This document shows positions 14,310 through 57,537 of a stretch of DNA of 64,000 nt, one piece after another. A program made the position numbers and the translations under genes. This stretch comes from Candidatus Gottesmanbacteria bacterium UBA6580 (GTDB lineage: Bacteria > Patescibacteriota > Microgenomatia > UBA10105 > UBA927), in NCBI GenBank assembly GCA_002433895.1, contig DJJA01000003.1, forward strand, positions 175,788 through 239,787, read 5' to 3'. How positions within the stretch are numbered: position 1 is the stretch's first letter; each line of letters starts with the position of its first letter. The notes under the pieces are model-generated. The model did no database searches and was not told where the DNA came from. It was given only the letters and a program-made list of their open reading frames with translations.

Positions 14310-15155
14310 ATGGTAAATATTAACGCACCAGGAATTGAATTTTTTGAGAGTTTCGCAAACGAGATTGAAAGCAAATTCCAACGCATAAAGACCCTTGTGC
14401 CTCATCGAGTTGCCTCTGGCAATTATCATGAGGAAATAATTAGAACTATATTGAGAAATTTTCTAACCAAGAGATATTCGGTTAAAACGGGTTTTATCTA
14501 TAAATCTAACAGCGAAATCAGCAGACAACTTGATATTCTAATCATTGATGAAGATTCTCCTGCCGCATATCTTTTTCAGGAGGGAGATTTTGCGATAGTA
14601 ATACCTGAAGCAGTCATGGCCGTCCTTGAAGTAAAAACAACGCTAAATGCTCCAGATTTCGATGAGGCTTTAGAAAATATCGCTTCTGCGAAAAAACTGA
14701 TGAGGTTCCCAGCTGCAGCAACGGGAATTATTTTTGGCTACGGTGGCACCTCCCCAACAGATAATAATCTTGATAGATGGTACAAAAGGGCGACCCCATC
14801 ATCTTTTAGTGAGAGTGAGAAAAATTTACTTGGACCAAATGCCGTCATGTTTTTTACTGCCGGCTGCTTGCTTGCTCGATACACAGAAGAAGGCAAATGG
14901 GAAAGTGGGGGCAAGTACTATCACAAGCTATTTAGAGACGATTCAGTTAAAAAATCTCCCAGCGATGTGGCATGGCAACTATCTGTCATACTAGCGATGA
15001 CAATTGCTGCTTGTGAAAATGGAGAGATGAGCAGAACTCATATGTTTCCCGCAGGCTATGCGGACAGGCTTATCCAAAGTGAGGGTGGTATGATTAGCCA
15101 TTCAAGATTTGCATTTGGAGAGGGCCTTTCAAGGAGAGAATATGCCTCTCGCTAG
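14310..15155 (+). CDS. PD-(D/E)xK-like nuclease-fold protein resembling the DUF6602 family
   Basis: The N-terminal third reads GNYHEEIIRTILRNFLTKRYSVKTGFIYKSNSEISRQLDILIIDEDSPAAYLFQEGDFAIVIPEAVMAVLEVK. This gives D...(E/D)...EVK spacing typical of restriction-endonuclease-like folds, and matches the DUF6602 signature as I recall it. TATAAT lies 7 nt upstream of the ATG, suggesting a leaderless transcript. The gene is low GC, about 36%. Confidence 0.45.
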   Translation: MVNINAPGIEFFESFANEIESKFQRIKTLVPHRVASGNYHEEIIRTILRNFLTKRYSVKTGFIYKSNSEISRQLDILIIDEDSPAAYLFQEGDFAIVIPEAVMAVLEVKTTLNAPDFDEALENIASAKKLMRFPAAATGIIFGYGGTSPTDNNLDRWYKRATPSSFSESEKNLLGPNAVMFFTAGCLLARYTEEGKWESGGKYYHKLFRDDSVKKSPSDVAWQLSVILAMTIAACENGEMSRTHMFPAGYADRLIQSEGGMISHSRFAFGEGLSRREYASR

Positions 15156-15439
15156 TTACAGACATCCTTAATAACATTTATTAAGGAAATTATTGTTGCA
15201 ATAGTAGAGATTATTGTAAGCACTAATAACCATTTGTTGGTATTACTAGCTTGCCTTTCTAAACTTACTTGATGCATTGCTAATCGCTTAATCAAATGTT
15301 TAATAATATCCAGGTTCTGTTTTTCACCTGCCGGAGTTTTAGGTATAGTATTGGCCTCTCTAATAGCATCCTTTATAAGCTCATCTGATTTTTTGAATTT
15401 TTCTAGGTAGGCTTCTTTTTCGATGTCTTTTTCGTTCAT
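15152..15439 (-). CDS. Small tail-anchored membrane protein (95 aa)
   Basis: Probable start MNEKDIEKEAY at 15439, 5 nt after the stop of the upstream ORF, with AGGA 14 nt upstream. Helical N-terminus and a single C-terminal TM (WLLVLTIISTIATIISLINVI). Confidence 0.4.
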   Translation of the reverse strand: MNEKDIEKEAYLEKFKKSDELIKDAIREANTIPKTPAGEKQNLDIIKHLIKRLAMHQVSLERQASNTNKWLLVLTIISTIATIISLINVIKDVCN

Positions 15440-15443
15440 ATAA

Positions 15444-15908
15444 TTATTTAATCCTGCAAATGTTGCATAAATATGGAAAAATGTTATCAATAAGTGTTAT
15501 CAAATATATTACTATAAATATCCAAATTACTATAAAAGACGCAATTTTTGTATTAATAAAAGCCTCGTTTTTGATTTTATGTATTAAACCTTCAACAAAG
15601 GGATTAATCTGATTTTTATGCCCATGCTTATCTTCAATTGTTCTTGCTAAATCAGTCCAAAACTTAGTCCACATAAAGCCTCTCTTTGTCATTTGAAGCC
15701 ATAGTAAACACAAAATTATTCCTAAAGGGGGAAGAATTTGTTTAACGAGAATTGGAACATTTGAGTTAGGGTTAAGCGTAAGACCAATTAAGGTCATAAA
15801 TATTGTATTTACAACAAGCATTGCATTGTAGCGCTCCCACTGGATTTGTGACTCAGCAATACGCATATTTATATAAGCTTCGTATTCAGACTTAGAGCTA
15901 TTTTTCAT
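15444..15908 (-). CDS. Small 3-TM membrane protein (154 aa)
   Basis: Start MKNSSKSEYEAY at 15908. Three hydrophobic helices. About 30% GC. No homolog recognised. Confidence 0.4.
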   Translation of the reverse strand: MKNSSKSEYEAYINMRIAESQIQWERYNAMLVVNTIFMTLIGLTLNPNSNVPILVKQILPPLGIILCLLWLQMTKRGFMWTKFWTDLARTIEDKHGHKNQINPFVEGLIHKIKNEAFINTKIASFIVIWIFIVIYLITLIDNIFPYLCNICRIK

Positions 15909-15945
15909 ATCAAAAACCACAAAAAACCTGCATCGGGGCAGGTTA
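15909..15945 (-). terminator. Possible minus-strand intrinsic terminator
   Basis: Hairpin AACCTGC-atcggg-GCAGGTT (15925-15944), followed on the minus strand by the U-run ttttttgtggttttt. This would stop read-through from the hsd/CBASS operon, running antisense across the HTH gene. Confidence 0.3.
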
Positions 15946-16153: not shown

Positions 16154-16573
16154 ATGGCAAAACGAAGTGAAATTAAGGAACAACAGGAAAAGTTTATAGC
16201 TGAATTTAAAAGCCTACGCTCGGCCGGTAACGTGTTGGTTGCCTGTCAAACCCTAGGTTATGCGCGTAGCACTGTGTATCATTGGCGAATAATTGATGAG
16301 GGGTTTGCCCACCTTTGGGATGAAACGGTGCTTGATGGATTTGACATACGTGCCGATGAAGCTGAAAACGCCCTACGGTTAGCAATTACCAAAGACCGTA
16401 ATATCACTGCCATTATTTTTACCCTTAAAAACTTACGGCCAGACAGATATAGGGAAAGGTTTGACGTTGAGTATAAAGGTAAGATTGCAAACGAACTAAA
16501 GCAGAACTTTTTAGCTACTTTAAGTAGATTGGGGAAAAATGCTGATGAACAATTACGAAGGAAAAAAATATAG
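16154..16573 (+). CDS. HTH-domain protein (terminase-small-subunit-like or transposase-like HTH)
   Basis: The N-terminus KEQQEKFIAEFKSLRSAGNVLVACQTLGYARSTVYHWR shows the pattern of phage TerS/HTH_Tnp-type helix-turn-helix. It is the only plus-strand gene in a run of minus-strand genes. AAGG is 4 nt upstream of the ATG. Confidence 0.35.
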   Translation: MAKRSEIKEQQEKFIAEFKSLRSAGNVLVACQTLGYARSTVYHWRIIDEGFAHLWDETVLDGFDIRADEAENALRLAITKDRNITAIIFTLKNLRPDRYRERFDVEYKGKIANELKQNFLATLSRLGKNADEQLRRKKI

Positions 16574-16590
16574 CAACGAATATAGGACCC

Positions 16591-17184
16591 CTATTTTTTA
16601 GTAAACACTAATTTACCCCTTGTTTTCCTGTTTTCATCATTGGAGTAATATCCCTCAAGTTTCTTGTTATTTATTACATCTAAATATGTAAAACCCTCGT
16701 GCATACCACCAGATACTGAGTTAAGTAAGGTTTTTGAGCGAGCCTTACTCCGATAAGCATAAACTAAAAACCATTTACCATTTTCCTTTTGTTTGAGCCT
16801 AGCAAAATAACTTTCAAAGTCTGAACTATTGCCAAAGTCACCTTCAATGTATAAGGTTGAGTAGCTTTGAGTTATTGTAGCGATACCTGAGCCCTTTTTG
16901 CCATTATTAAATGTACTTTCATATTTTATTTGCCAACTACCAGTTAATACTGGGTACTCATAAAAACCGACTAGTTTACACAACAAAAATGCCAACCATT
17001 GTTCTTTCCAAAGCCATTTATCCCAAGCGTAATATAACCCATAAATTATGAAGCTCACAGTTCCAACTGACGCAATGAATGAAGCAATGCCATTTCCTAA
17101 AATCCCCCCTATCCATTTAGCTATAACTTGGATTAACGCAACTAATATTACGATTGAGGTGATGTATTTTTGTTGATCTTTCAT
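16591..17184 (-). CDS. 2-TM plus C-terminal beta-rich domain protein, candidate Cap15-like CBASS effector
   Basis: 197 aa. It has two N-terminal TM helices (ITSIVILVALIQVIAKWIGGILG..., ASVGTVSFIIYGLYYAW) and a roughly 130-aa beta-rich C-terminal domain. It overlaps the upstream nucleotidyltransferase gene by 4 nt. Confidence 0.45.
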   Translation of the reverse strand: MKDQQKYITSIVILVALIQVIAKWIGGILGNGIASFIASVGTVSFIIYGLYYAWDKWLWKEQWLAFLLCKLVGFYEYPVLTGSWQIKYESTFNNGKKGSGIATITQSYSTLYIEGDFGNSSDFESYFARLKQKENGKWFLVYAYRSKARSKTLLNSVSGGMHEGFTYLDVINNKKLEGYYSNDENRKTRGKLVFTKK

Positions 17185-18020
17185 ATATTAAAAAATTGGC
17201 GAAAATAACTGTTTGCTAACGTTTCCGACGTTGCCCTTGCCGCGGCATTTAATTGTGGCAACTTATTGGCAATATGTTGCCTGAAGGCTATAAAACTTTG
17301 AGGAGACCATTCATTTTGTGAAATAACTATTTTATCCCCTGCAACAGTTGTGAATGTTGAAACGAAACTTTGACCAACCATATGGCTAAGTATGTTATTT
17401 AGCGAATACGCTAAGTCATTACCAAATGAATTGTCTGTATAGCTATAAACTAAACACTCAATATAAAAAGATGGGGCAATGTTTTTTAAGTTCCAATTAT
17501 TAACATAATTTTTCAACATTCTTACTAACTTTTTATAATTGTTGTTTGTACGCTGGTTTTTAGCTTGCCCGTTAGCAAGATGGGTCTTGGGATAGTTTCT
17601 TATGCTTTGAGCGATAATCAGTGGTTCCCTGTATTGATTAAGTTGAACAGCTGTGGACCTTATTGCAGGAACGATATCTGCTTGTTTGGTATTAAGGTTT
17701 ACTGTTAAACATTTATGACCAATTGTTACCATCCCCATATAGTTTTGATTTGCTTCCAGTTTATTTTTAATGTCATAAAAAAGGTTGCTCGGCTGACTTG
17801 AGCCTGTTAATAGGCTCATAAGTGGGTTATGAACGGCAACTATGTCAACATCGTTAATATCGGATATCGCTGTATCATTAGCGTAGCTTCCTTGCAAAAA
17901 AGTTTCGTAATTCGGTAAAAGTGCCCTAATGTTGTTGTGAAGGGAAGATATATCGGTCATTGTGGTTTGTGAAACCCCGCTTGAAACCTGACTAATTAAT
18001 CCTTGTGATACGTACGACAT
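17181..18020 (-). CDS. CD-NTase/SMODS-like nucleotidyltransferase (candidate cyclic-oligonucleotide synthase)
   Basis: GS...DxD Pol-beta NTase motif (LQGSYANDTAISDINDVDIVAV). A third acidic residue sits in hDhVPa context (KQADIVPA) about 55 aa later. There is a downstream helical region (YKKLVRMLKNYVNNW). 279 aa. The start lies 1 nt after the hsdS stop. Confidence 0.5.
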   Translation of the reverse strand: MSYVSQGLISQVSSGVSQTTMTDISSLHNNIRALLPNYETFLQGSYANDTAISDINDVDIVAVHNPLMSLLTGSSQPSNLFYDIKNKLEANQNYMGMVTIGHKCLTVNLNTKQADIVPAIRSTAVQLNQYREPLIIAQSIRNYPKTHLANGQAKNQRTNNNYKKLVRMLKNYVNNWNLKNIAPSFYIECLVYSYTDNSFGNDLAYSLNNILSHMVGQSFVSTFTTVAGDKIVISQNEWSPQSFIAFRQHIANKLPQLNAAARATSETLANSYFRQFFNI

Positions 18021-18021
18021 A

Positions 18022-19251
18022 TTAGTTATTAAATGTTTTAGCTAAAACTGCTTGGGTTAGTTTTGATACCTTTGCTTCCGCGGCCTCAATTTGCTTTTCA
18101 ACTTTATCTGCAAGCTCAAAATAGCTTTTTACCCTTTTTACTATTTCCTTCTGTTCTTCCAGAATTGGAATTTCAATGGGCAAGTTTCTCAAATCCTCCA
18201 AGTTTATCCCTGTATATGCAACTCCCTTCTGTACGTTTGCTAGCCAATATTGTGAAACAGTTGACCCAATATAATATGCGATAAAATCTGGGAAAACTTT
18301 GCTTTTATCTACTGGGACTACTGCTACCTCGCGGGAAACGTTCCATCCCTTCATTTCAGTTGGGACAGCCACGACACCACCTAGCGTTCCACGCACGTTA
18401 ACCAATACCTCACCGCCCATTAGTATCGTCCTTGAGTAACTTGACGATAAAGTAGGTGAAATTCGTTTTAGTCCATTTAATTCAAAATTCAACCATCGGA
18501 CATTACTTGTTCTAAGACACGGAGTCCCATCTTCAATATGTTCTCCCAACTTAATCACACCATAACTTATACCTTTACCTTTTTCGCATAATTCACCCAA
18601 TGCTTTATTTGCCCATACACTATTTAAGTCTTTTATCGTTGACAGCTGTTTCTTCCGCCAATCCTCGGTAAGTTTTCCGGTAATCGCCGCAGTTAAAATT
18701 GCTTGACGAAAATTATTGAGCTGATTTTTAGCACTAGTTAACTTACTAGCAGTTTTATGGATTGAAATAATTTGGTTATTCAGTAAATCGGCAATTTTAT
18801 TTTGAGTTGTTACATCTGGCAACTTTATTGGGATTGTTTTCATTGCAGATTGTGTTAGTTTCAATCTGGTTGTACCTGCAACATAGTCACTAAAATCAAA
18901 ATAATCCAAGTAGTATTTAATAAACCGATTATTTGAAATATCTTTTCTTGCCCTTAAAACGTGTGCGTGATTATTTACCCAACTTTTGCCGTTGATTATG
19001 TACGCGATTGGCTTGGATTTATCCAAAAAGGGGGCGCCATCTTCGCCCAGAAGCACCAATTCCTCATCAAAAATATAATCGTTAATCCAACCTACCTGAC
19101 CTGTTGCTCCATAATAGGGTACCTCACCAATTCTTTTACTTCTGTCATTTGAGTTAATTGGCACCCTTTGGCCATCTAAAATATCAACACAATCTTTAAG
19201 TTGGTATTCCTTCCAACCATTGTTATTTAGTACCGTCTGTGAATTCTGCAT
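18022..19251 (-). CDS. hsdS: Type I restriction-modification specificity subunit HsdS
   Basis: Two target-recognition domains are separated by the conserved central helix (NKIADLLNNQIISIHKTASKLTSAKNQLNNFRQAILTAAITGKL). The C-terminal conserved repeat is present (LEEQKEIVKRVKSYFELADKVEKQIEAAEAKVSKLTQAVLAKTF). Confidence 0.85.
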   Translation of the reverse strand: MQNSQTVLNNNGWKEYQLKDCVDILDGQRVPINSNDRSKRIGEVPYYGATGQVGWINDYIFDEELVLLGEDGAPFLDKSKPIAYIINGKSWVNNHAHVLRARKDISNNRFIKYYLDYFDFSDYVAGTTRLKLTQSAMKTIPIKLPDVTTQNKIADLLNNQIISIHKTASKLTSAKNQLNNFRQAILTAAITGKLTEDWRKKQLSTIKDLNSVWANKALGELCEKGKGISYGVIKLGEHIEDGTPCLRTSNVRWLNFELNGLKRISPTLSSSYSRTILMGGEVLVNVRGTLGGVVAVPTEMKGWNVSREVAVVPVDKSKVFPDFIAYYIGSTVSQYWLANVQKGVAYTGINLEDLRNLPIEIPILEEQKEIVKRVKSYFELADKVEKQIEAAEAKVSKLTQAVLAKTFNN

Positions 19252-20644
19252 ATATTTTTTCCAAGCTATGTGTAGCTTCCTTTAGTTCAGACAGTACGCT
19301 TTTAATAAGTTCTTCAGGTTTGCCAATATCATCACCATTTTCAATATCTTCGTCTTTAATCCACTTAAAACCATCCAACTTGTAATGCTTTTCTTTAACC
19401 TGAGCGATGGTAAACATTTTCCAACGATTTTCTTTGGAGTCAGCTTCTTTACGCGGTGATTGACCATTAGGATTGTCGCCGTAACACTTTTCAAACCCCT
19501 CAAAATGTTTGTGGGTTAGCGGCCTATCTTTAACCGTTATTCCCGGTACATTAGTGCGCGCATCATAAATCCACACGTTTTCCGTGGGTATTCCTTTGGT
19601 AAAAAACACTACGTTGGCTTTAACACCTTGGCTATAAGGGGTAAACGTACCGTTAGGTAAACGTAAAATTGTGTGCAGGTTGCAATCCTGCATCAAAATC
19701 TTAAACACTTCTGCCGCTTGGTCGCCGAAAAGCACGTTGTCGGGCAGTACAACCGCCGCACGGCCTCCCGGTTTAAGGATGGTAAGGATATGTTGCGCGA
19801 AGTTTAGCTGTTTATTGCTTGTTGCAACGGTAAAGTCCTGCCGCTCCGGTACTTGGTTAGCCCCCTTAGTGCCAAATGGCGGGTTTGTCAGTACCACATC
19901 GTACCTGTCACCGCGGTCAGGCTCATAAATGCTGTCGCCTAATCGTATGTTGGAAATAATACCGTGCAGGTATAGGTTCATTAACGCTAACCTGCGTGGC
20001 CTTGCTACTAGCTCCGTGCCATAATAAGTTTTTTCCCTTATACGCTTAATGTCTTCGCGGTTAATTGCACCTTTGCTTTGGTGCATTAACCACTCATAGG
20101 CGCTTAACAAAAATCCACCTGTACCTGCGGCTGGGTCACATATCGTAAAGTCTTTTATTTCCCTTGGGTCGGGTTTCATTACATTGACTATTGCTTGGAT
20201 TAGGACACGGGGAGTGAAGTATTGCCCTGCGCCCTTTTTACCCTCGGCGGCTGATTTTTCTAGTAAACCCTCGTAGGCTTGGGCTTTAACATCAATGTTT
20301 AACCCCGACCAATCAATTTCATCAATAAGGTCAATCAAACGTTTAAGGTTTACTGGTTTGGTGAACTTAGATAGCGCTTCAACAAAAATCGCCCCAAGTA
20401 AACCTTCTTGTCGTGCTAAACCACGCAATAGCTCACTATAAAAATCAATTAACTCAGTGCCAGATTTGGATTTAAGCACTTCCCACGAGTACTTCTTAGG
20501 TATGTCTGCACCCTTTTCCTCCGCCATTTTCAAAAAAAGCAAATAGGTAAGTTGTTCCACATAGTCACCATAATCCATACCGTCGTGCCGGAGTACGTGG
20601 CAGTAACCCCATAATTTGTTAACAATGTTTGTATTAGTTTGCAT
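19223..20644 (-). CDS. hsdM: Type I R-M N6-adenine DNA methyltransferase HsdM
   Basis: LTNPPFGTK (NPPF motif IV), the SAM-binding motif CDPAAGTGGFL, and the HsdM N-terminal domain are present. Confidence 0.9.
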   Translation of the reverse strand: MQTNTNIVNKLWGYCHVLRHDGMDYGDYVEQLTYLLFLKMAEEKGADIPKKYSWEVLKSKSGTELIDFYSELLRGLARQEGLLGAIFVEALSKFTKPVNLKRLIDLIDEIDWSGLNIDVKAQAYEGLLEKSAAEGKKGAGQYFTPRVLIQAIVNVMKPDPREIKDFTICDPAAGTGGFLLSAYEWLMHQSKGAINREDIKRIREKTYYGTELVARPRRLALMNLYLHGIISNIRLGDSIYEPDRGDRYDVVLTNPPFGTKGANQVPERQDFTVATSNKQLNFAQHILTILKPGGRAAVVLPDNVLFGDQAAEVFKILMQDCNLHTILRLPNGTFTPYSQGVKANVVFFTKGIPTENVWIYDARTNVPGITVKDRPLTHKHFEGFEKCYGDNPNGQSPRKEADSKENRWKMFTIAQVKEKHYKLDGFKWIKDEDIENGDDIGKPEELIKSVLSELKEATHSLEKIYAEFTDGTK

Positions 20645-23336
20645 AGGCGTATACCTGTGGCATCGTCGTATTTAATTGGGTAATAAATGGCAACAATCTG
20701 TCGTCAAAATCCGCGTTAATACGCTTAAAACTTCCACCTAAATCTGTAAATATCGGCATTTCATCAAAGTCCTCCTTATCAATGGTTAAGTTTTCAGCCA
20801 AATGTAGTTTTATAAGCTCAATCCATTGTTCCTGTTTTTCATTTAACTTTTGTTTTCCAATAACCTTTTCAACCGCAAGGTCAACCCGTTCTTTGGCTGA
20901 CAATAACGGCTCGTCTTTGGCGGCGTGTTTGACCATTGAAATAATGTCTGCCAAGGGGTATTTATAAGCACGGCGCAAGTTGTCTTCAGTAAATCGCTCA
21001 GGTTGTTTGGATAGTGAGGTGCGCAATTCTGTTAAGGCTTTGGTATTCCACCCTTGGGGCTTACTTAACACAATGCTTATCGCCTCAATATGCTCGGGGT
21101 TATCTTTTACAAACCGCTCAAACTGTTTTAGGTAATCCTCAGGCTTTAGTTCGCGCCCGTCGGTGGTCCTAAAGACAAACTCGGATGTAACTGTGTCTTC
21201 CTGCTCAATCGCCCTTATAAAGCGTTTAGGCGGCCTTGGGTAGTTTTTAAGTAGGTCAATAAAGTTCGGGTCTGTCAGCGTCTTTAATGTGCCAACCCTA
21301 TCCTCACTCAACATATCCGGCAACTTTTTGGCAAACGCGCTTACATCCCCATCGGGTATAAAGTTGGCAAACATTTCCCGCCCTTCAGCGGTGGTATTTT
21401 TAGCAATGCGTTGCAGTCGTTTTACCAAACAGCGTGTGTTGTACTCAACCTCAATGTTGTCGTTTATAGCTTTTATAATTTCTTCAATACTTCTTGTTGG
21501 GTTGGTTGGTGTTACTTGGGTTATACCAGTGCTATTCTTAAATGCCTCAAGCAATGTTCCATCAAAACAATCAAACACGGTAAAGTGTGTTTTTGGCGGT
21601 GTTCCTAAACCGTTAGGGAAGTTTGTGCAAAGACGTGTACCGCGCCCAAGCATTTGCTCAAATAAGATACGGGACTTAACCGGCCGTAAAAACACGATGT
21701 TTTCAATTGAGGGTACATCAATACCGGTTGATAACATATCAACGGTAACTGCAATATGCGGTTCAGGTCTATTCCTAAACTCCTTTATGCGGGTTAATGG
21801 CCTATCCACGGTTGGTGAACCGGTAATTTTCTGTACAAAGGCATCCCCTCGGCCAAATGTATCGCGGCAAATATCAACTAACTGGTCGGCGTGTGAAGTA
21901 TGAGCTAAATCGTTATCAGCAAATATAAGCGTTTTGGGAAACCGGCCAAACTCCTTTTCCTGTTCCAAGGCATACTTAGCAAACTCCTGTATGATTTTGC
22001 GGTTGCTGTCTGGTGCTGTAATATCCCGTTCAACGTCAGCCACATCAAAATGTCGTTCGTCCTCCAATAAATCAAGTTGTTGTGCGCCGGTTTGTGTATC
22101 AACCTGTTCAACTTCCTCGCCTTCTTTTAGGGTAATGCCTTGTATGCGTACACCTGATGCTATCTTTACCGCGTCATAATCAACCAAATATCCATCTTGC
22201 ACAGCCCGCTCATAAGTGTAGCGGTATGCAATTTCCTTAAAGTAACTGGTGGTGTGGGCGGCAGGTGTAGCAGTTAAGCCTATCTTTGTGGCGTCAAAGT
22301 GGTCCAATACTCCGCGCCATTTACTTACTTCGTGGCTTGTATAACCCCTGTGGCACTCATCAGCAATAATCGTGTCAAACGCGTTAATCGGCATTTCAAT
22401 TTTGTCTGCATCATCATCTGGGTCGTAGTCGCCGCTATAACTAAACATACCCTCACGGCCATACAGGTTTATTTGCATCCGTTGGATGGTTGAAATATAC
22501 ACAAACACTTGGTTACCGTCAGGGTCAGTTAAATAGCCTGTGGGAATGACATTAAAATCAACCTTTTCATTGGCCTCAAAATCGTCTACCTTAAAACGTT
22601 GGCTATACACTTGGTAAATCTGGTTAAACTTTAGGCCGTTTTCGGCTTCATACGCGGCAAACTCCATTACTGCTTGGGCGGCAAGGGCTTTTCTGTCAAC
22701 CAAAAACAAAACGCGCTTACTAACACCGGACTTTAGCAGGCGGTAAACTAACGAGGCAATTGTGTAGGTTTTACCCGTACCGGTTGCCATAGCAATCAGC
22801 ATTGACCGTTTATTTTCAGTAATGTTTTTTTCAATCGCTGTTATAGCCTCACGTTGGTAGTGGCGGAGCTTACTATTGTTCGGTGGATTGGCAGTAAACC
22901 AACGTGCGTTACTTTGCGTGTCGCTAGTTAGGTACTCAATTAACGCTTTAGGCGTATGGAACTCCTGTACTTGGCGTGAGCGGCTTGGGGTAATGCGCAA
23001 ATCCTCATACCAAATAACTTCACCATTAGTGGAGTAAATAAACGGGACTGTTAAACCTTGTTGTTGTGCACCTTTAACATAACGATGGGCTTGCTGTAAG
23101 ACGTTTTGCGGACCAAGGCTTATCTTTTTTGCCTCAACAAACGCAATTAACTTACCATTTGCAAATAAGGCATAATCCGCCGGTCCGGTAGTGGTCATAT
23201 ATTCGGTAACCGCTACCTTATGCAAGGTTGAAGTATCCATCCCCTCCTTATAGGGGATTATCTTATCCCAACCAGCCTTTTTTAATTTATCGTCAATCCA
23301 CTTTTTACGAGTGGCTTGCTCGTCAATAATATCCAT
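20634..23336 (-). CDS. hsdR: Type I R-M restriction endonuclease/helicase subunit HsdR
   Basis: 900 aa. The N-terminal nuclease domain is followed by SF2 helicase motifs (MATGTGKTYT Walker A, DECHRG DEAH box). Confidence 0.9.
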   Translation of the reverse strand: MDIIDEQATRKKWIDDKLKKAGWDKIIPYKEGMDTSTLHKVAVTEYMTTTGPADYALFANGKLIAFVEAKKISLGPQNVLQQAHRYVKGAQQQGLTVPFIYSTNGEVIWYEDLRITPSRSRQVQEFHTPKALIEYLTSDTQSNARWFTANPPNNSKLRHYQREAITAIEKNITENKRSMLIAMATGTGKTYTIASLVYRLLKSGVSKRVLFLVDRKALAAQAVMEFAAYEAENGLKFNQIYQVYSQRFKVDDFEANEKVDFNVIPTGYLTDPDGNQVFVYISTIQRMQINLYGREGMFSYSGDYDPDDDADKIEMPINAFDTIIADECHRGYTSHEVSKWRGVLDHFDATKIGLTATPAAHTTSYFKEIAYRYTYERAVQDGYLVDYDAVKIASGVRIQGITLKEGEEVEQVDTQTGAQQLDLLEDERHFDVADVERDITAPDSNRKIIQEFAKYALEQEKEFGRFPKTLIFADNDLAHTSHADQLVDICRDTFGRGDAFVQKITGSPTVDRPLTRIKEFRNRPEPHIAVTVDMLSTGIDVPSIENIVFLRPVKSRILFEQMLGRGTRLCTNFPNGLGTPPKTHFTVFDCFDGTLLEAFKNSTGITQVTPTNPTRSIEEIIKAINDNIEVEYNTRCLVKRLQRIAKNTTAEGREMFANFIPDGDVSAFAKKLPDMLSEDRVGTLKTLTDPNFIDLLKNYPRPPKRFIRAIEQEDTVTSEFVFRTTDGRELKPEDYLKQFERFVKDNPEHIEAISIVLSKPQGWNTKALTELRTSLSKQPERFTEDNLRRAYKYPLADIISMVKHAAKDEPLLSAKERVDLAVEKVIGKQKLNEKQEQWIELIKLHLAENLTIDKEDFDEMPIFTDLGGSFKRINADFDDRLLPFITQLNTTMPQVYAYAN

Positions 23337-23350
23337 ACTTATTTTTATCT

Positions 23351-23548
23351 TTACTTTTTATTCTTATTTTCCTCAATGTAACGCTCAATGTCTTCCAATT
23401 TATAGCGCCTATCACCGACACCCCTGCGTGAACCAATACGGATGGAGGGCAATCGTCCTTCATTATCCCAGCGCCTTAATGTTTCGGGGTTTACGCCTAA
23501 AATATCAGCGGCTTGTTTAATTCTTAGTAGTTTAACGACCGGTTTCAT
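23351..23548 (-). CDS. Excisionase/MerR-family HTH DNA-binding protein
   Basis: LRIKQAADILGVNPETLRRWDNEGRLPSIRIG is typical of Xis/HTH_17 proteins. It ends 14 nt before the hsdR start. Confidence 0.6.
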   Translation of the reverse strand: MKPVVKLLRIKQAADILGVNPETLRRWDNEGRLPSIRIGSRRGVGDRRYKLEDIERYIEENKNKK

Positions 23549-23629
23549 AACTTACACATAATTATACATCGTCAGGCTTGTTTTTGCTCCTCCAAAATTC
23601 ACTTTTACTCCAGTAGACTGTCCTTCACT

Positions 23630-23827
23630 ATGAACTACAGGGATTTGATGGCGGAAGCACGGGCGATACATTTTGCTATGCACCACGGTAGCATTACCTA
23701 TGAGGAAGCACAGGTAAAAGTTAAGCCGGTTTTGGAAATACTAAATAGGAAGAATGCCAAGATAGCGAAAAGACACGGAGTAACCCCACGGAAGTTTACA
23801 TTCCAAAGCCTAGGACGAACTTTTTAG
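23630..23827 (+). CDS. Small hypothetical protein (65 aa)
   Basis: ORF only; divergent from the excisionase-like gene. Confidence 0.3.
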   Translation: MNYRDLMAEARAIHFAMHHGSITYEEAQVKVKPVLEILNRKNAKIAKRHGVTPRKFTFQSLGRTF

Positions 23828-24036
23828 AAAAACGTACTTAGGGATGTTTTTAATGCTTTGGCAATTTTTTCCAGCACCTCAAGGGATGGTGTGTACCTGC
23901 CTTGCTCAATATACCCCATATAAACACGACTGACATTAACTTTATCGGCTAAATCATTTTGGGTTAATCCGCACACCTTCCGCCTTTTTTGGATTTTTTT
24001 ACCTAGCACTTTTGGCAATCTGGCATTTTTCCGCAT
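23824..24036 (-). CDS. XRE-family HTH transcriptional regulator
   Basis: LTQNDLADKVNVSRVYMGYIEQGRYTPSLEVLEKIAKAL is a classic Cro/C1 HTH. ORF 23824..24072; the likely start is MRKN at 24036. Confidence 0.65.
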   Translation of the reverse strand: MRKNARLPKVLGKKIQKRRKVCGLTQNDLADKVNVSRVYMGYIEQGRYTPSLEVLEKIAKALKTSLSTFF

Positions 24037-24162
24037 ATTGTAATTGTGGAAAACGCATCGTCCATAATCCACTAAGCCAGACTAAGCATTTAGCCTTAAA
24101 AAGGGCTTGTTTTTATGCTAAGCATCATTTAGCATTATCTTATTGAGGCAAGGAGGTGAAAT

Positions 24163-25810: not shown

Positions 25811-26242
25811 ATGAAAAATTACACGAAGATACCAAATGAAATATTAACTCAATCGCAACTTACCATACCAGCTAGGTACTTATACTGCGCATTGCTAAAG
25901 TATTGTGGCAATGACGATAAGTGTTTTCCAAGTCAGCAGACTTTAGGAAAAGACCTTGGAAGGACACCGCGATACGTTAGGGAATTACTAGGGGAACTTA
26001 TAAGCGCCGGTTTGGTTTATAAAAAAAGGCTGGGTTACAACAGGGCAAATACTTATACGGTATCCAAAGACTTAAAGACATACTGGAACCACGGTTCCTA
26101 TCATATCGGTACAGTATTTCCCCTCCATCAAGGAAATACAGTGCCAGATAAAAGTACTTATATAAAAGGAAAAGGTAAAAGGAGTATTAAGGGTTTGGAA
26201 AAAATGCGAAAAGCGTTAATTGAACAAAGGATTATTAAATAG
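25811..26242 (+). CDS. HTH_36-type winged-helix protein (replication-initiator/phage-regulator-like)
   Basis: IPARYLYCALLKYCGNDDKCFPSQQTLGKDLGRTPRYVRELLGELISAGLV is typical of PF13730. Confidence 0.5.
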   Translation: MKNYTKIPNEILTQSQLTIPARYLYCALLKYCGNDDKCFPSQQTLGKDLGRTPRYVRELLGELISAGLVYKKRLGYNRANTYTVSKDLKTYWNHGSYHIGTVFPLHQGNTVPDKSTYIKGKGKRSIKGLEKMRKALIEQRIIK

Positions 26243-26349: not shown

Positions 26350-27852
26350 ATGAAGGACGAAGTATATGTTTATATAAGGGTTTCAACGTCGGAGCAGGCA
26401 GACGAGGGGTTTTCTATTGATAACCAAAAACGAGCCTGTAAGGAGTTTTGCGAGGCACGAGGTTACCACATAAAGCGGATGTTTGTTGAGGATGGGCGAA
26501 GCGCTAGGACTACCGAAAGACCCGCTTTACAGGAAATGCTCAAGGCCTTGGTAGATACGCCAGTTGGCGCAATTGTTATTTATAAGATTGATAGATTTGC
26601 CCGTAACGTAACCGACTTTTCAAGGCTTTATAACGAGTTTAAGACAAAGGGAATACAGCTCATATCAGTAAGCGAGGGCAACTTAAGCGAGGGGACAAGT
26701 TTAGTGCCAAACATTTTTGCCAGTGTTGCGCAATGGGAGAGCGAAGTTAATAGTCAACGAACACGCGATGCGTTAATGCAAAAGTTTAGGGAAGGCTGGC
26801 AACCAACCCCACCCCCTATTGGGTATAGGAGTGTTGGCGCTGACAGGGAACGAAAAACTTGTGAACCAGACCCATACACTGCACCGATAATACGGGAGCT
26901 ATTTGAGCTATATTCAACCGGCAACTACTCAATTTATGAGTTACAAAATTGGTTAGCCGAACGGGATATTGTTAGTAAAACTGGCACACCCATAGGTCAC
27001 AGTGTAATTGGAACAATACTTAATAATCGGTTTTATTATGGTTGGATTAGCTGGCACGGTGAGGGGAAAACGGGCAAACATATGCCAATTATTAGTAAGG
27101 ACTTATTTGATACGTGCCAATATGTATTAGCAAAACACCGTAACTTCCTAACACGTAATCGCATTCACCAGTTTTTACTCCGCGGGTTCGTACACTGTGC
27201 TGAGTGTGGCCAACGATATACCGCGGAGTGGCATTTTAAGCCTAGATTTACTAAACGAAACGGCAAGATTGCTTATTACCATTGCCCCAAGATGAACCGC
27301 AATGGTTGCCCTGCGCCATACGTGGAGGTGGGTGATCTTGAAAAGTTGGTATTCGACACTGTAAAAGGTGTGCAATTTAGCCAAGATTTTATTGATGCTG
27401 TGGTTGATAAAGCGCGTAGATTTGTTGATGACAGTAGGAAGCGTGCAGGTGGCGATATGCAAGCGTGTATTAACCAGCGCACTGCACTTGAGTTTAAGCG
27501 CAACAAACTTGAAGACGCCTTACTAGATAACACGATTGACCGTACTGTTTTTAAGCGCAAGCACGATGAAATTGAAGCGCAGATTAGGTTAATTGACGAC
27601 CGAACACGCGAGATTGAAGCACAAAGTCACGTTGACATTAAACTTGTTGAGGACGTGCTTAACTTTACCCGCGATGTAGGCAGAACATACGACGAAGCGC
27701 CTGACTTTTTGAAACGACATTTTTTACGCTTCTTTTTTGAAAAGATAATGGTAAAAGATAAGAAGATAGCGGAAGTTATTTACACACCAATAATAGCGCC
27801 GTTAGTGGCAAACCACTCGGTTATAATAAAAAACCTTATGCTCCCCCGGTAG
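26350..27852 (+). CDS. Large serine recombinase (integrase)
   Basis: Resolvase catalytic domain (VYVYIRVSTSEQADEGFSIDNQ...IYKIDRFARN), recombinase domain, and a Zn-ribbon (CAECGQRYTAEWH...YYHCPKMNRNGC). 500 aa. The last 12 nt overlap the tRNA-Asn 3' end on the opposite strand. Confidence 0.9.
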   Translation: MKDEVYVYIRVSTSEQADEGFSIDNQKRACKEFCEARGYHIKRMFVEDGRSARTTERPALQEMLKALVDTPVGAIVIYKIDRFARNVTDFSRLYNEFKTKGIQLISVSEGNLSEGTSLVPNIFASVAQWESEVNSQRTRDALMQKFREGWQPTPPPIGYRSVGADRERKTCEPDPYTAPIIRELFELYSTGNYSIYELQNWLAERDIVSKTGTPIGHSVIGTILNNRFYYGWISWHGEGKTGKHMPIISKDLFDTCQYVLAKHRNFLTRNRIHQFLLRGFVHCAECGQRYTAEWHFKPRFTKRNGKIAYYHCPKMNRNGCPAPYVEVGDLEKLVFDTVKGVQFSQDFIDAVVDKARRFVDDSRKRAGGDMQACINQRTALEFKRNKLEDALLDNTIDRTVFKRKHDEIEAQIRLIDDRTREIEAQSHVDIKLVEDVLNFTRDVGRTYDEAPDFLKRHFLRFFFEKIMVKDKKIAEVIYTPIIAPLVANHSVIIKNLMLPR

Positions 27853-27912
27853 GATTCGAACCTACAACCGTCTTCTTAACAGGAAGCTGCGCTACCGTTG
27901 CGCCACAGGGGA
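27841..27912 (-). tRNA. tRNA-Asn (anticodon GTT)
   Basis: Folded by eye. Acceptor TCCCCTG/CGGGGGA (one G-U), D-arm GCGC-AACGGTA-GCGC, anticodon loop CTGTTAA (GTT), T-arm GTAGG-TTCGAAT-CCTAC, discriminator G. CCA is not encoded. Confidence 0.75.
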
Positions 27913-27930
27913 ATGTGTTTCCTCTAAGTG

Positions 27931-27968
27931 CTACCTCCACCAGTTGGCGGAGCGCTCAGGGGAACGAT
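27931..27968. repeat. Hairpin repeat R1 (imperfect palindrome plus diverged tRNA-Asn 5'-end-like tail)
   Basis: R1 is ctacctccaccagttggcggagcgctcaggggaacgat; compare R2 at 28233-28270. It encodes the C-terminal RSPERSANWWR* of the GIY-YIG protein. Confidence 0.55.
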
Positions 27969-28212
27969 ATATTAATTTTTTAATATGCTCTCTTCCTCGA
28001 TAACTTTTAAGTTGTTTTTCTCTTTTGAGCGTCTCTTGTCTCGTGTTCACTTTTTCTTTATATATGAGTTTCCAGTCACCAGAAAACCTTGATGTATATG
28101 ATCCTTTAAACGTTTTAGAGTTGTGTAAACTTATCCGTTCCTCAATGTCTTCTGTTTGCCCGATATATATTTTATTATTCTCCCTATTATAGACAGCATA
28201 GACATAATACAT
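27931..28212 (-). CDS. GIY-YIG nuclease family protein (small UPF0213-like)
   Basis: MYYVYAVYNRENNKIYIGQTEDIEERISLHNSK...TRQETLKREKQLKSYRGREHIKKLI is the canonical short GIY-YIG protein. ORF 27931..28260; the true start is the ATG at 28212. The upstream extension is translation of the hairpin repeat. Confidence 0.75.
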   Translation of the reverse strand: MYYVYAVYNRENNKIYIGQTEDIEERISLHNSKTFKGSYTSRFSGDWKLIYKEKVNTRQETLKREKQLKSYRGREHIKKLIYRSPERSANWWR

Positions 28213-28232
28213 GGCTATATTATATCGCTGCG

Positions 28233-28270
28233 CTACCTCCGCCAGCTGGCGGAGCGCCACAGGGGAATGT
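28233..28270. repeat. Hairpin repeat R2 (perfect palindrome ctccgccAGCTggcggag) fused to an exact copy of the first 14 nt of tRNA-Asn plus 4 nt of 5' flank
   Basis: R2 is ctacctccgccagctggcggagcgccacaggggaatgt. The tail gcgccacaggggaatgt is identical to 27900-27916. Confidence 0.6.
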
Positions 28271-57440: not shown

Positions 57441-57512
57441 GGGCCAGTAGCTCAGTGGCAGAGCGCTATCCTTATAAGATAGATGTCCTTGGTCCGATCC
57501 CAAGCTGGCCCA
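57441..57512 (+). tRNA. tRNA-Ile (anticodon TAT; AUA-decoding), intact copy B nested between the halves of copy A
   Basis: Acceptor GGGCCAG/CTGGCCC, D-arm GCTC-AGTGGCA-GAGC, anticodon stem CTATC/GATAG with loop CTTATAA, T-arm CTTGG-TCCGATC-CCAAG, discriminator A. It is flanked by a 10-bp inverted repeat: cgggtacgaa at 57411-57419 and ttcgtacccg at 57523-57532. Confidence 0.7.
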
Positions 57513-57537
57513 CTAGCATAATTTCGTACCCGCTATA

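Follow-up and report, generated by a model that had tools for sequence, protein, structure and literature searches.

Does a type I restriction-modification (R-M) operon that runs, almost without a break, into the cyclase and effector genes of a cyclic oligonucleotide-based antiphage signalling system (CBASS) represent a fused defence system, or two known systems placed side by side? This question is raised by a locus in a 64,000-nucleotide stretch of DNA, referred to here as the window, from contig DJJA01000003.1 (positions 175,788 to 239,787) of Candidatus Gottesmanbacteria bacterium UBA6580. The host belongs to the Patescibacteria, or candidate phyla radiation (CPR). The best explanation is that the six genes of the locus are the defence cargo of a serine-recombinase integrative element of about 14 kb adjoining a tRNA-Asn gene, and that they are read as one transcript encoding two mechanistically independent layers of defence brought together by modular assembly. 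The probability of this explanation as a whole, which draws on sequence and analogy, is put at about 0.75. All of the parts are of known kinds and similar pairings are on record; the tight junction and the host are unusual.

The six genes are all on the minus strand and are listed here in the direction of transcription:

23351–23548, minus strand: excisionase/MerR-type helix-turn-helix (HTH) gene of the HTH_17 family, 65 aa, the first gene of the cargo operon
20634–23336, minus strand: hsdR, type I restriction subunit (EcoAI/EcoEI-like), 900 aa
19223–20644, minus strand: hsdM, N6-adenine methyltransferase subunit, 473 aa
18022–19251, minus strand: hsdS, specificity subunit with two target-recognition domains, 409 aa
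17181–18020, minus strand: cdnE, predicted cGAS/DncV-like nucleotidyltransferase (CD-NTase; clade E by best matches), CBASS cyclase, 279 aa
16591–17184, minus strand: cap15, predicted CBASS effector with two transmembrane helices and a beta-barrel, 197 aa

An earlier reading of the sequence, the original prediction, had described six packed genes of these identities. All six open reading frames (ORFs) were recovered at the same positions, and profile searches and folds agree for every gene. Its further statement that neighbours are separated or overlap by 14 nt or less holds for the gaps, none of which is longer, but not for the overlaps. The HTH gene and hsdR are separated by 14 nt, hsdR and hsdM overlap by 11 nt, and hsdM and hsdS overlap by 29 nt. 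Read directly from the sequence, the junction between hsdS and cdnE is a gap of 1 nt (...AAC TAA T ATG) and that between cdnE and cap15 is a 4-nt overlap (ATGA). A convergent gene (16154–16573) has its stop 17 nt from the end of cap15. Each of the six ORFs matches a curated Pfam family above threshold, and the compact string of genes is therefore real, rather than a chance run of ORFs.

The gene following hsdS is predicted to be a CD-NTase, assigned to clade E by its best matches. The protein scores 36.7 bits against Pfam SMODS (gathering threshold 26.5) and 3.3e-32 against the PADLOC cyclase model, and carries PF26305 CD_NTase_C in the precomputed annotation. The best sequence matches in the PDB are RmCdnE (8e-19) and LpCdnE (5e-13). 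When the AlphaFold2 (AF2) model, with a predicted local distance difference test score (pLDDT) of 90.8, was compared with the PDB by Foldseek, the top 50 matches were all CD-NTases and the top 13 were all CdnE. By sequence or fold the closest structures are 6e0k, 7x4f, 6e0m, 7x4c and 7x4a, and it is from these alone that the clade is taken. The Pol-beta nucleotidyltransferase motif, noted in the original prediction as GS...DVD, reads QGSY...DVD...ADIV, and residues G44, S45, D57, D59 and D115 are invariant in 36 homologues. The lid-1 residue is Asn142 and the lid-2 residue is His147. According to the model and the Foldseek matches this is a minimal cyclase of 279 residues with no extra docking domain. 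The score against NTP_transf_2 is only 18.4 bits, which is under threshold, and identification as an MNT/HEPN, aminoglycoside nucleotidyltransferase or CCA-adding enzyme was ruled out by the profile and fold evidence. Profiles and Foldseek thus both returned the CD-NTase fold that had been foreseen for this gene, and not that of another Pol-beta enzyme.

The product of the last gene matches Pfam Cap15_CD_rec at 52.6 bits (gathering threshold 31.2) over profile positions 2–122 of 122, and the PADLOC CBASS model for effectors with two transmembrane helices at 2.8e-25. Two Kyte-Doolittle peaks above 1.6 are centred at residues 15–22 and 37–42. In the AF2 model (pLDDT 83.5) helices occupy residues 4–29 and 40–56 and an eight-strand barrel occupies residues 82–196. 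The top Foldseek matches are the Yersinia aleksiciae Cap15 structures 7n34 and 7n35, with an E-value of 1e-6, a target TM-score of 0.83–0.86 and a root-mean-square deviation of 2.3–2.5 Å. The Cap15-like barrel and paired membrane helices expected from the earlier reading are therefore found by both Pfam and Foldseek. Type I CBASS, as reportedly defined by Millman and colleagues in 2020, comprises a cyclase and an effector only. No E1, E2 or JAB (Cap2/Cap3) and no HORMA or TRIP13 match was found among 10 neighbouring proteins with Pfam and PADLOC, or in the locus tables. Because cyclase and effector are adjacent and these ancillary genes are absent nearby, cdnE and cap15 are classed, from sequence and models, as a predicted minimal type I CBASS of the CdnE-Cap15 kind.

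The upstream genes have the features of a type I R-M system: a nuclease N-terminal domain, a superfamily 2 motor and EcoEI_R_C in HsdR, the NPPF motif in HsdM, and an HsdS with two target-recognition domains. HsdR contains the Pfam domains HSDR_N, ResIII (1e-37), Helicase_C and EcoEI_R_C (1.2e-34), and matches PADLOC REase_I at 2.5e-100. Its NCBIfam matches, to PRK11448 (608 bits) and to the EcoAI family (289 bits, cut-off 550), are both under the equivalog cut-offs and the subfamily assignment is approximate. HsdM matches N6_Mtase (6e-62), HsdM_N and PADLOC MTase_I (2e-170). The NPPF motif can be read in its translation (...VVLTNPPFG...), alongside which a DECH motif is visible in the R-M translations. 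HsdS matches Methylase_S (2e-34) over two stretches and PADLOC Specificity_I at 1.3e-65. All three subunits are assigned by PADLOC to type I. A reading of the HTH gene, hsdM and hsdS as part of a MADS system was rejected, as the matches are partial (mad1-, mad2- and mad5-like) and far weaker than those to the type I models. The NCBIfam scores are 90 bits for MADS2 (cut-off 720) and 50 bits for MADS5 (cut-off 400), and no equivalents of mad3, mad4, mad6 or mad7 from the mad1–mad8 set were found at the locus with PADLOC or NCBIfam.

Whether this arrangement is particular to the window was addressed in 17 loci, including that of the window, in which CdnE is at least 42% identical to the window CdnE; in each, the spacing between cdnE and the same-strand gene upstream of it was measured. 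These loci are designated by L numbers. The gene directly upstream of cdnE is hsdS in seven of the 17, with the following gaps between the two:

window and L175: 1 nt, with the same TAATATG junction
L090 and L092: 4 nt each
L007, L169 and L177: 8 nt each

The full six-gene order is kept in L007 and L169. Other arrangements of the pair are:

L090: hsdM-hsdS-cdnE-cap15-hsdR, with the pair nested in the type I operon as in the prr locus
L172 (2628–12651): hsdM-YhcG-hsdS-SduA(Shedu)-cdnE-cap15-hsdR, the one locus of 17 with cdnE after Shedu in an hsdM...hsdR operon
L170: type III-like mod-res followed by cdnE after 32 nt, on the same element backbone, also one locus of 17
L168: HTH gene followed by cdnE-cap15 after 35 nt, with no R-M genes, on the same element backbone

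R-M linkage is thus present in 9/17 loci and in at least three architectures, with gaps of 1–8 nt where the upstream gene is hsdS. The R-M partners are unrelated, being type IB-like, of a second type I family (HsdM only ~25% identical) or type III-like. No adjoining R-M gene is present in the other eight (L168, L167, L171, L173, L174, L176, L088 and L089). The cdnE of L174 has its own TTGACT-17-TATAAT promoter, and L167 also has its own upstream region. Whatever the upstream gene, the gap before cdnE is 1–35 nt in 12 of the 17 loci. In a neighbour-joining tree of the cyclases the contexts with and without R-M interleave. In the wider family only about 2–3 of 80 GTDB loci are linked to R-M, with hsd genes just upstream in L007 and L038. 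Because the context ranges over type I R-M, type III-like R-M, an HTH gene alone and a free-standing pair with its own promoter, CdnE-Cap15 is a portable two-gene module. By the same comparison, the joining of this CdnE-Cap15 lineage to R-M operons has occurred repeatedly and has given at least three architectures, and the pairing of R-M with CBASS is a modular juxtaposition, not a bespoke mechanism. The description of the locus in the original prediction as a fusion of R-M with CBASS was consequently not retained.

Three of these loci have further genes of interest. A single type I operon in L172 contains three embedded defence modules in one orientation: a DUF1016/YhcG nuclease, Shedu SduA and CdnE-Cap15. 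A gene for a TIR-domain protein follows CdnE-Cap15 in L174 (2684–5140). An ORF of 157–171 aa directly follows cap15, with a 1-nt gap or an overlap, in L175 (4090–4563) and L169 (9384–9899). It is not present in the window, carries a D...E-x-K-like motif (VDIKV...LIEVKGD), and may be a third gene in some versions of the module.

The first gene of the operon encodes a protein that matches Pfam HTH_17 (2e-13) and MerR (1e-9), PADLOC mad1 (2.8e-14), the NCBIfam excisionase domain TIGR01764 (32.5 bits, cut-off 28.8) and PHROG 66, 'excisionase and transcriptional regulator'. Its homologues lead both R-M-containing operons (L007 and L169) and one without R-M (L168). A role as an R-M controller (C) protein, which had been suggested for this gene, is not supported: the family is HTH_17/MerR/excisionase, not the XRE-type HTH_3, and in L168 the homologue stands before cdnE without any R-M gene. 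A candidate promoter element precedes the gene:

23561–23570, minus strand: -10-like promoter element GATGTATAAT, in which TATAAT ends 12 nt upstream of the HTH start codon

This 10-mer precedes the HTH gene in identical form in the window, L007, L169 and L168, where the flanks cannot be aligned and the HTH proteins of the four elements are only 54–69% identical. It occurs as one exact copy in the window. In L007, L169 and L168 it forms the right arm of an operator-like inverted repeat over the -10 (AATTATAC...GTATAATT). Conservation of this motif supports one cargo transcript. In a consensus scan none of the operon junctions was listed with a terminator-like site, and the 200 nt before cdnE contained no promoter-like site. 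The junctions are too short to accommodate a promoter of their own, which suggests that the abortive infection layer rides on R-M transcription. It is most likely that a promoter upstream of the HTH gene drives one transcript covering HTH-hsdR-hsdM-hsdS-cdnE-cap15, and the single transcript of the original prediction is therefore plausible.

The six-gene arrangement is old. When the window is compared with L007 or L169, every one of the six genes shows saturation at four-fold sites (Jukes-Cantor distances of 0.6–2.0), yet gene order has been kept in L007 and L169, and the hsdS-TAATATG-cdnE junction in L175. Against L007 and L169 identity is 84% for HsdR and 83–86% for HsdR and HsdM together, compared with 54% for the HTH protein, 66% for CdnE and 69% for Cap15. 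Since saturation extends to all six genes, these differences reflect constraint, not age or recent transfer, and recent exchange of an R-M cassette was ruled out as the reason for the high identity of HsdR and HsdM. The hsdS gene is only 28–31% identical to those of the sister operons despite the similarity of their hsdR and hsdM, which indicates swapping of specificity. Between L007 and L169 the four-fold distances are 0.2 for the HTH gene and hsdR, 0.38 for cdnE, 0.48 for hsdM, 1.0 for hsdS and 1.33 for cap15. By this mosaic, recombination shuffles parts within the operon, with hsdS and cap15 swapped between operons that are otherwise close.

The operon is placed on an integrative element by its neighbours:

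26350–27852, plus strand: large serine recombinase with Resolvase, Recombinase and Zn_ribbon_recom domains, CcrB-like (4e-46)
27840–27912, minus strand: tRNA-Asn(GTT), found with ARAGORN and at 61.9 bits with the Rfam tRNA model, overlapping the end of the recombinase gene
25811–26242, plus strand: replication-initiator-like HTH_36 protein
23824–24072, minus strand: XRE repressor
16154–16573, plus strand: TerS-like ORF (PHROG 4044, 4e-13)

GC content falls from 46–52% to 34–44% across about 14–28 kb of the window, and it is by this drop alone that the left end is placed near 14.1 kb. The recombinase with its tRNA-Asn, the XRE repressor, the HTH_36 protein, the TerS-like ORF and the drop in GC content are together the reason for regarding the operon as element cargo, and tRNA-Asn is the likely integration site. 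Homologues of the recombinase that are 58–62% identical flank the sister CdnE-Cap15 loci L168 and L170. The only match in an Rfam scan over 12–30 kb was to tRNA. The TerS-like ORF, XRE repressor, HTH_36 protein and serine recombinase form a gene set like that of a phage satellite or phage-inducible chromosomal island (PICI), and TerS-like ORFs recur near serine recombinases and CdnE-Cap15 in the CPR loci L019, L021–L023, L129, L133, L134 and L154. The element is possibly satellite-like.

Other features lie in or beside the element. Within 27891–28270 there is a partial copy of the tRNA-Asn 5' end (28245–28270, 85%), and a 26-nt direct repeat (27930–27955 and 28232–28257, 92%) brackets about 300 bp with a small GIY-YIG ORF; this stretch has the look of a small insertion distinct from the element and next to the tRNA gene. 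At 14310–15155 on the plus strand, 1.4 kb from cap15 and on the opposite strand to it, is a gene for a 281-aa DUF6602 protein. The N-terminal 120 residues of this protein match NucC-type PD-DExK models of CBASS and CRISPR effectors (PADLOC NucC 3.7e-20, PD_DExK 1.8e-29), and a homologue is directly upstream of the CdnE relative in L097 (555–911). It is a candidate for a further nuclease-type defence gene or effector, encoded separately. A 158-aa protein of the Pfam 8xMP family (octameric membrane protein family, 1e-13) is encoded at 15152–15920 on the minus strand in the low-GC island, and overlaps a 112-aa ORF with a hydrophobic C-terminal tail.

With respect to the host, the ribonucleotide reductase of the window groups with a protein from Patescibacteria. 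Exact copies of the CdnE and Cap15 sequences were found in one genome context only, from bioreactor sludge. Matches on plasmids are all 32% identical or less, and in searches for carriage of the module by phages there was one distant match in IMG/VR (27% identity) and none in the GenBank phage collection. Elsewhere in the window ARAGORN identified a tRNA-Ile with the anticodon TAT (UAU) at 57441–57513 on the plus strand. This tRNA is uncommon in bacteria, in which AUA is usually read by a lysidine-modified CAU tRNA.

Among the closest known systems is Ssc-CBASS of Staphylococcus schleiferi, the best-studied CdnE-Cap15 system, of type I-B (CdnE03 and Cap15), which a figure legend describes as flanked by type I R-M (Banh et al. 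2023, PMC10686824). Ssc-CdnE03 is activated by a phage-derived structured RNA (cabRNA) and makes cyclic GMP-AMP (cGAMP), which activates Cap15 (PMC10686824). Like the pair in the window, where the clade is taken from best matches, it consists of two genes in one operon, for a clade-E CD-NTase and for a Cap15 with two transmembrane helices and a beta-barrel, and it has no ancillary genes. It differs in that its host is a Firmicute rather than a CPR bacterium, and in that it is treated in the publication as a separate operon, whereas in the window only 1 nt separates the hsdS stop from the start of cdnE. Activator and product have been demonstrated there, whereas the cyclase of the window is known from its sequence. 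The best sequence and fold matches of the window pair are LpCdnE, ClCdnE, EfCdnE and RmCdnE and the Yersinia aleksiciae Cap15 (7x4f, 7x4a, 7x4c, 6e0k and 7n34). LpCdnE, ClCdnE and EfCdnE pair with Cap15 (PMC10442399). These four cyclases share the catalytic GS, DxD and D residues of the window CdnE, ClCdnE and EfCdnE share its lid-1 Asn and lid-2 His (N142 and H147), and the Yersinia effector has the same beta-barrel as the window Cap15. Identity to the window proteins is nevertheless only 20–26% for the cyclases and ~21% for Cap15, and the (R/Q)xW donor-pyrimidine motif is not kept.

The placement of additional defence genes in R-M operons has precedents. In the enteropathogenic Escherichia coli RRDM island, rptR-hsdM-hsdS-darTG2-hsdR, a repressor encoded by a tiny first ORF controls both R-M and the embedded DarTG2 (PMC12255303). 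The likeness lies in a very small DNA-binding first ORF followed by a co-oriented type I R-M system and an abortive infection or toxin module. The repeat operator of RptR overlaps the -10, which may be compared with the inverted repeat in L007, L169 and L168. RptR itself, however, is of another fold family than the HTH_17/excisionase protein, DarTG2 lies between hsdS and hsdR (order M-S-x-R, rather than the R-M-S-x of the window), and regulation was shown there where in the window it is proposed from sequence. The prr locus (EcoprrI, hsdM-hsdS-prrC-hsdR) and other embedded systems likewise have an abortive infection-type module co-oriented within or at the end of a type I operon; in the present lineage L090 and L172 are true embedded cases. 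The window differs in having its module appended 3' of hsdS, not nested between hsd genes. PrrC, moreover, is physically controlled by the R-M complex, whereas the module of the window is known from its genes. In the 'guilt-by-embedding' study of Payne et al. 2024, genes embedded in type I R-M, BREX and DISARM were surveyed, 96.7% of embedded cases were co-oriented and co-regulation was suggested; neither its text nor the supplements consulted mention CBASS as an embedded system (bioRxiv 10.1101/2024.01.29.577857). No paper in which CBASS is said to belong to a type I R-M operon was found by literature search, the one related statement being that in the Ssc-CBASS figure legend. The novelty originally claimed for the locus is even so too strong, given that Ssc-CBASS is flanked by type I R-M (PMC10686824) and that embedding, together with the idea of co-regulation, has been published (bioRxiv 10.1101/2024.01.29.577857, PMC12255303).

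A working scheme can be proposed on this basis. The promoter near the HTH gene would give one transcript encoding two mechanistically independent layers acting in series, restriction and then CBASS. The EcoAI/EcoEI-like R-M system would methylate host DNA and cut unmodified incoming DNA, and the minimal type I CBASS would be a back-up layer behind it. CdnE would be switched on by an infection cue, maybe a phage-derived structured RNA by analogy with Ssc-CdnE03, and, as in its homologues, would make a cyclic dinucleotide. Characterised Cap15 proteins are summarised in PMC12657230 as binding the dinucleotide with the barrel, multimerising and disrupting the inner membrane. The barrel of the window protein would, by homology, bind the nucleotide, oligomerise and breach the inner membrane, so that the cell dies before phage release. 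Assembly would have occurred through the placing of R-M cassettes of various kinds before CdnE-Cap15, or of CdnE-Cap15 inside R-M cassettes.

Several observations weigh against parts of this explanation. The left end of the element lacks confirmation from repeats, as direct repeats over 12–29.5 kb that might represent attachment sites were looked for, and so was another copy of the tRNA-Asn 3' end, with nothing convincing in either case. The cyclase falls under the NCBIfam CBASS-cyclase equivalog cut-offs (CBASS_cyclase_b 78 bits, cut-off 200). A prediction of its product through the (R/Q)xW pyrimidine motif had to be rejected: W238 is invariant, but the position two residues before it is T, G or N. 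Co-transcription is argued from spacing and one conserved motif; the inverted-repeat operator of L007, L169 and L168 was searched for in the window and not found. The consensus scan for promoters and terminators performed no better than on shuffled sequence (32 sites, 27.8 expected) and did not list the conserved -10 element GATGTATAAT. In addition, GC content at third codon positions (GC3) drops from 42–43% in hsdR and hsdM to 31–33% in hsdS, cdnE and cap15, which fits a 3' block acquired on its own, within which an internal promoter could lie. This last point belongs to an alternative in which CdnE-Cap15 is transcriptionally autonomous, with a promoter in the 3' part of hsdS, so that the two systems share a location, as in a defence island, and not their regulation. 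Promoter-like sites do occur within hsdS at 18822–18794 (10/12 matches) and 18741–18712, the free-standing module of L174 has a promoter of its own, and the mosaic within the L007 and L169 operons implies recombination breakpoints between genes. Such sites are, however, no commoner than in shuffled sequence, the nearest lies ~770 nt from cdnE on its upstream side, and the HTH gene alone is preceded by the conserved -10-like motif. The short gap before cdnE in 12 of the 17 loci is what read-through or translational coupling predicts. Autonomy of the pair is therefore considered unlikely, though it is the most probable of the alternatives.

A closer relationship than that proposed would exist if CBASS guarded the R-M complex in the manner of PrrC, firing on a phage anti-restriction protein or using R-M activity as a sensor of infection. 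That PrrC and PARIS guard R-M is already an accepted idea (PMC12657230), and the nine R-M-linked loci, with their several architectures including the prr-like L090, would suit it, set beside the 2–3 of 80 in the wider family. Obligate embedding of the PrrC kind is excluded by the eight related loci without an adjoining R-M gene. The same module, at similar divergence, does without R-M in L168, L171, L167, L173 and L174, is found elsewhere with R-M of unrelated types, and has a minimal cyclase with no domain for docking; Ssc-CBASS functions when cloned without its flanking R-M (PMC10686824). Guarding is accordingly improbable, and there is equally little expectation that the cyclase uses R-M as its sensor, triggered by an anti-restriction block of the Hsd complex or by restriction products. 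Were it true, no CBASS before this one would have been shown to guard a restriction enzyme or to be licensed by one. The least probable alternative is inverse signalling as in Panoptes, where a constitutive nucleotide would hold the membrane barrel protein off until a phage sponge or nuclease releases it. The 2TM-beta effector of Panoptes is indeed Cap15-like and shares this architecture (PMC12657230), and an activating ligand cannot be told from an inhibiting one by sequence. Its cyclase, however, is mCpol, a minimal Cas10 Palm, whereas Pfam, PDB sequence matches and fold all identify that of the window as a CD-NTase, and the effector matches both Pfam Cap15_CD_rec and the Yersinia Cap15 structure. 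The characterised CdnE-Cap15 pairs that were found are all activating, as shown for Ssc-CBASS (PMC10686824) and stated for the LpCdnE, ClCdnE and EfCdnE operons (PMC10442399). Two independent layers on one transcript of a mobile element remain the preferred explanation.

No new mechanism or new class of system is revealed by the locus. Its meaning lies in a two-layer immunity, restriction first and abortive infection second, carried on a mobile element and probably read as a single transcript, and in a host from the Patescibacteria or CPR, for which almost no CBASS literature was found: both terms occur in four papers, with Patescibacteria named once in each. The related loci form a series of natural controls: HTH-CBASS, HTH-type I R-M-CBASS, type III R-M-CBASS and CBASS nested in hsdM...hsdR. 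This series makes it possible to ask whether co-transcription with R-M alters the dosage, timing or toxicity of CBASS, and whether defence cassettes dock preferentially at the 3' end of hsdS.

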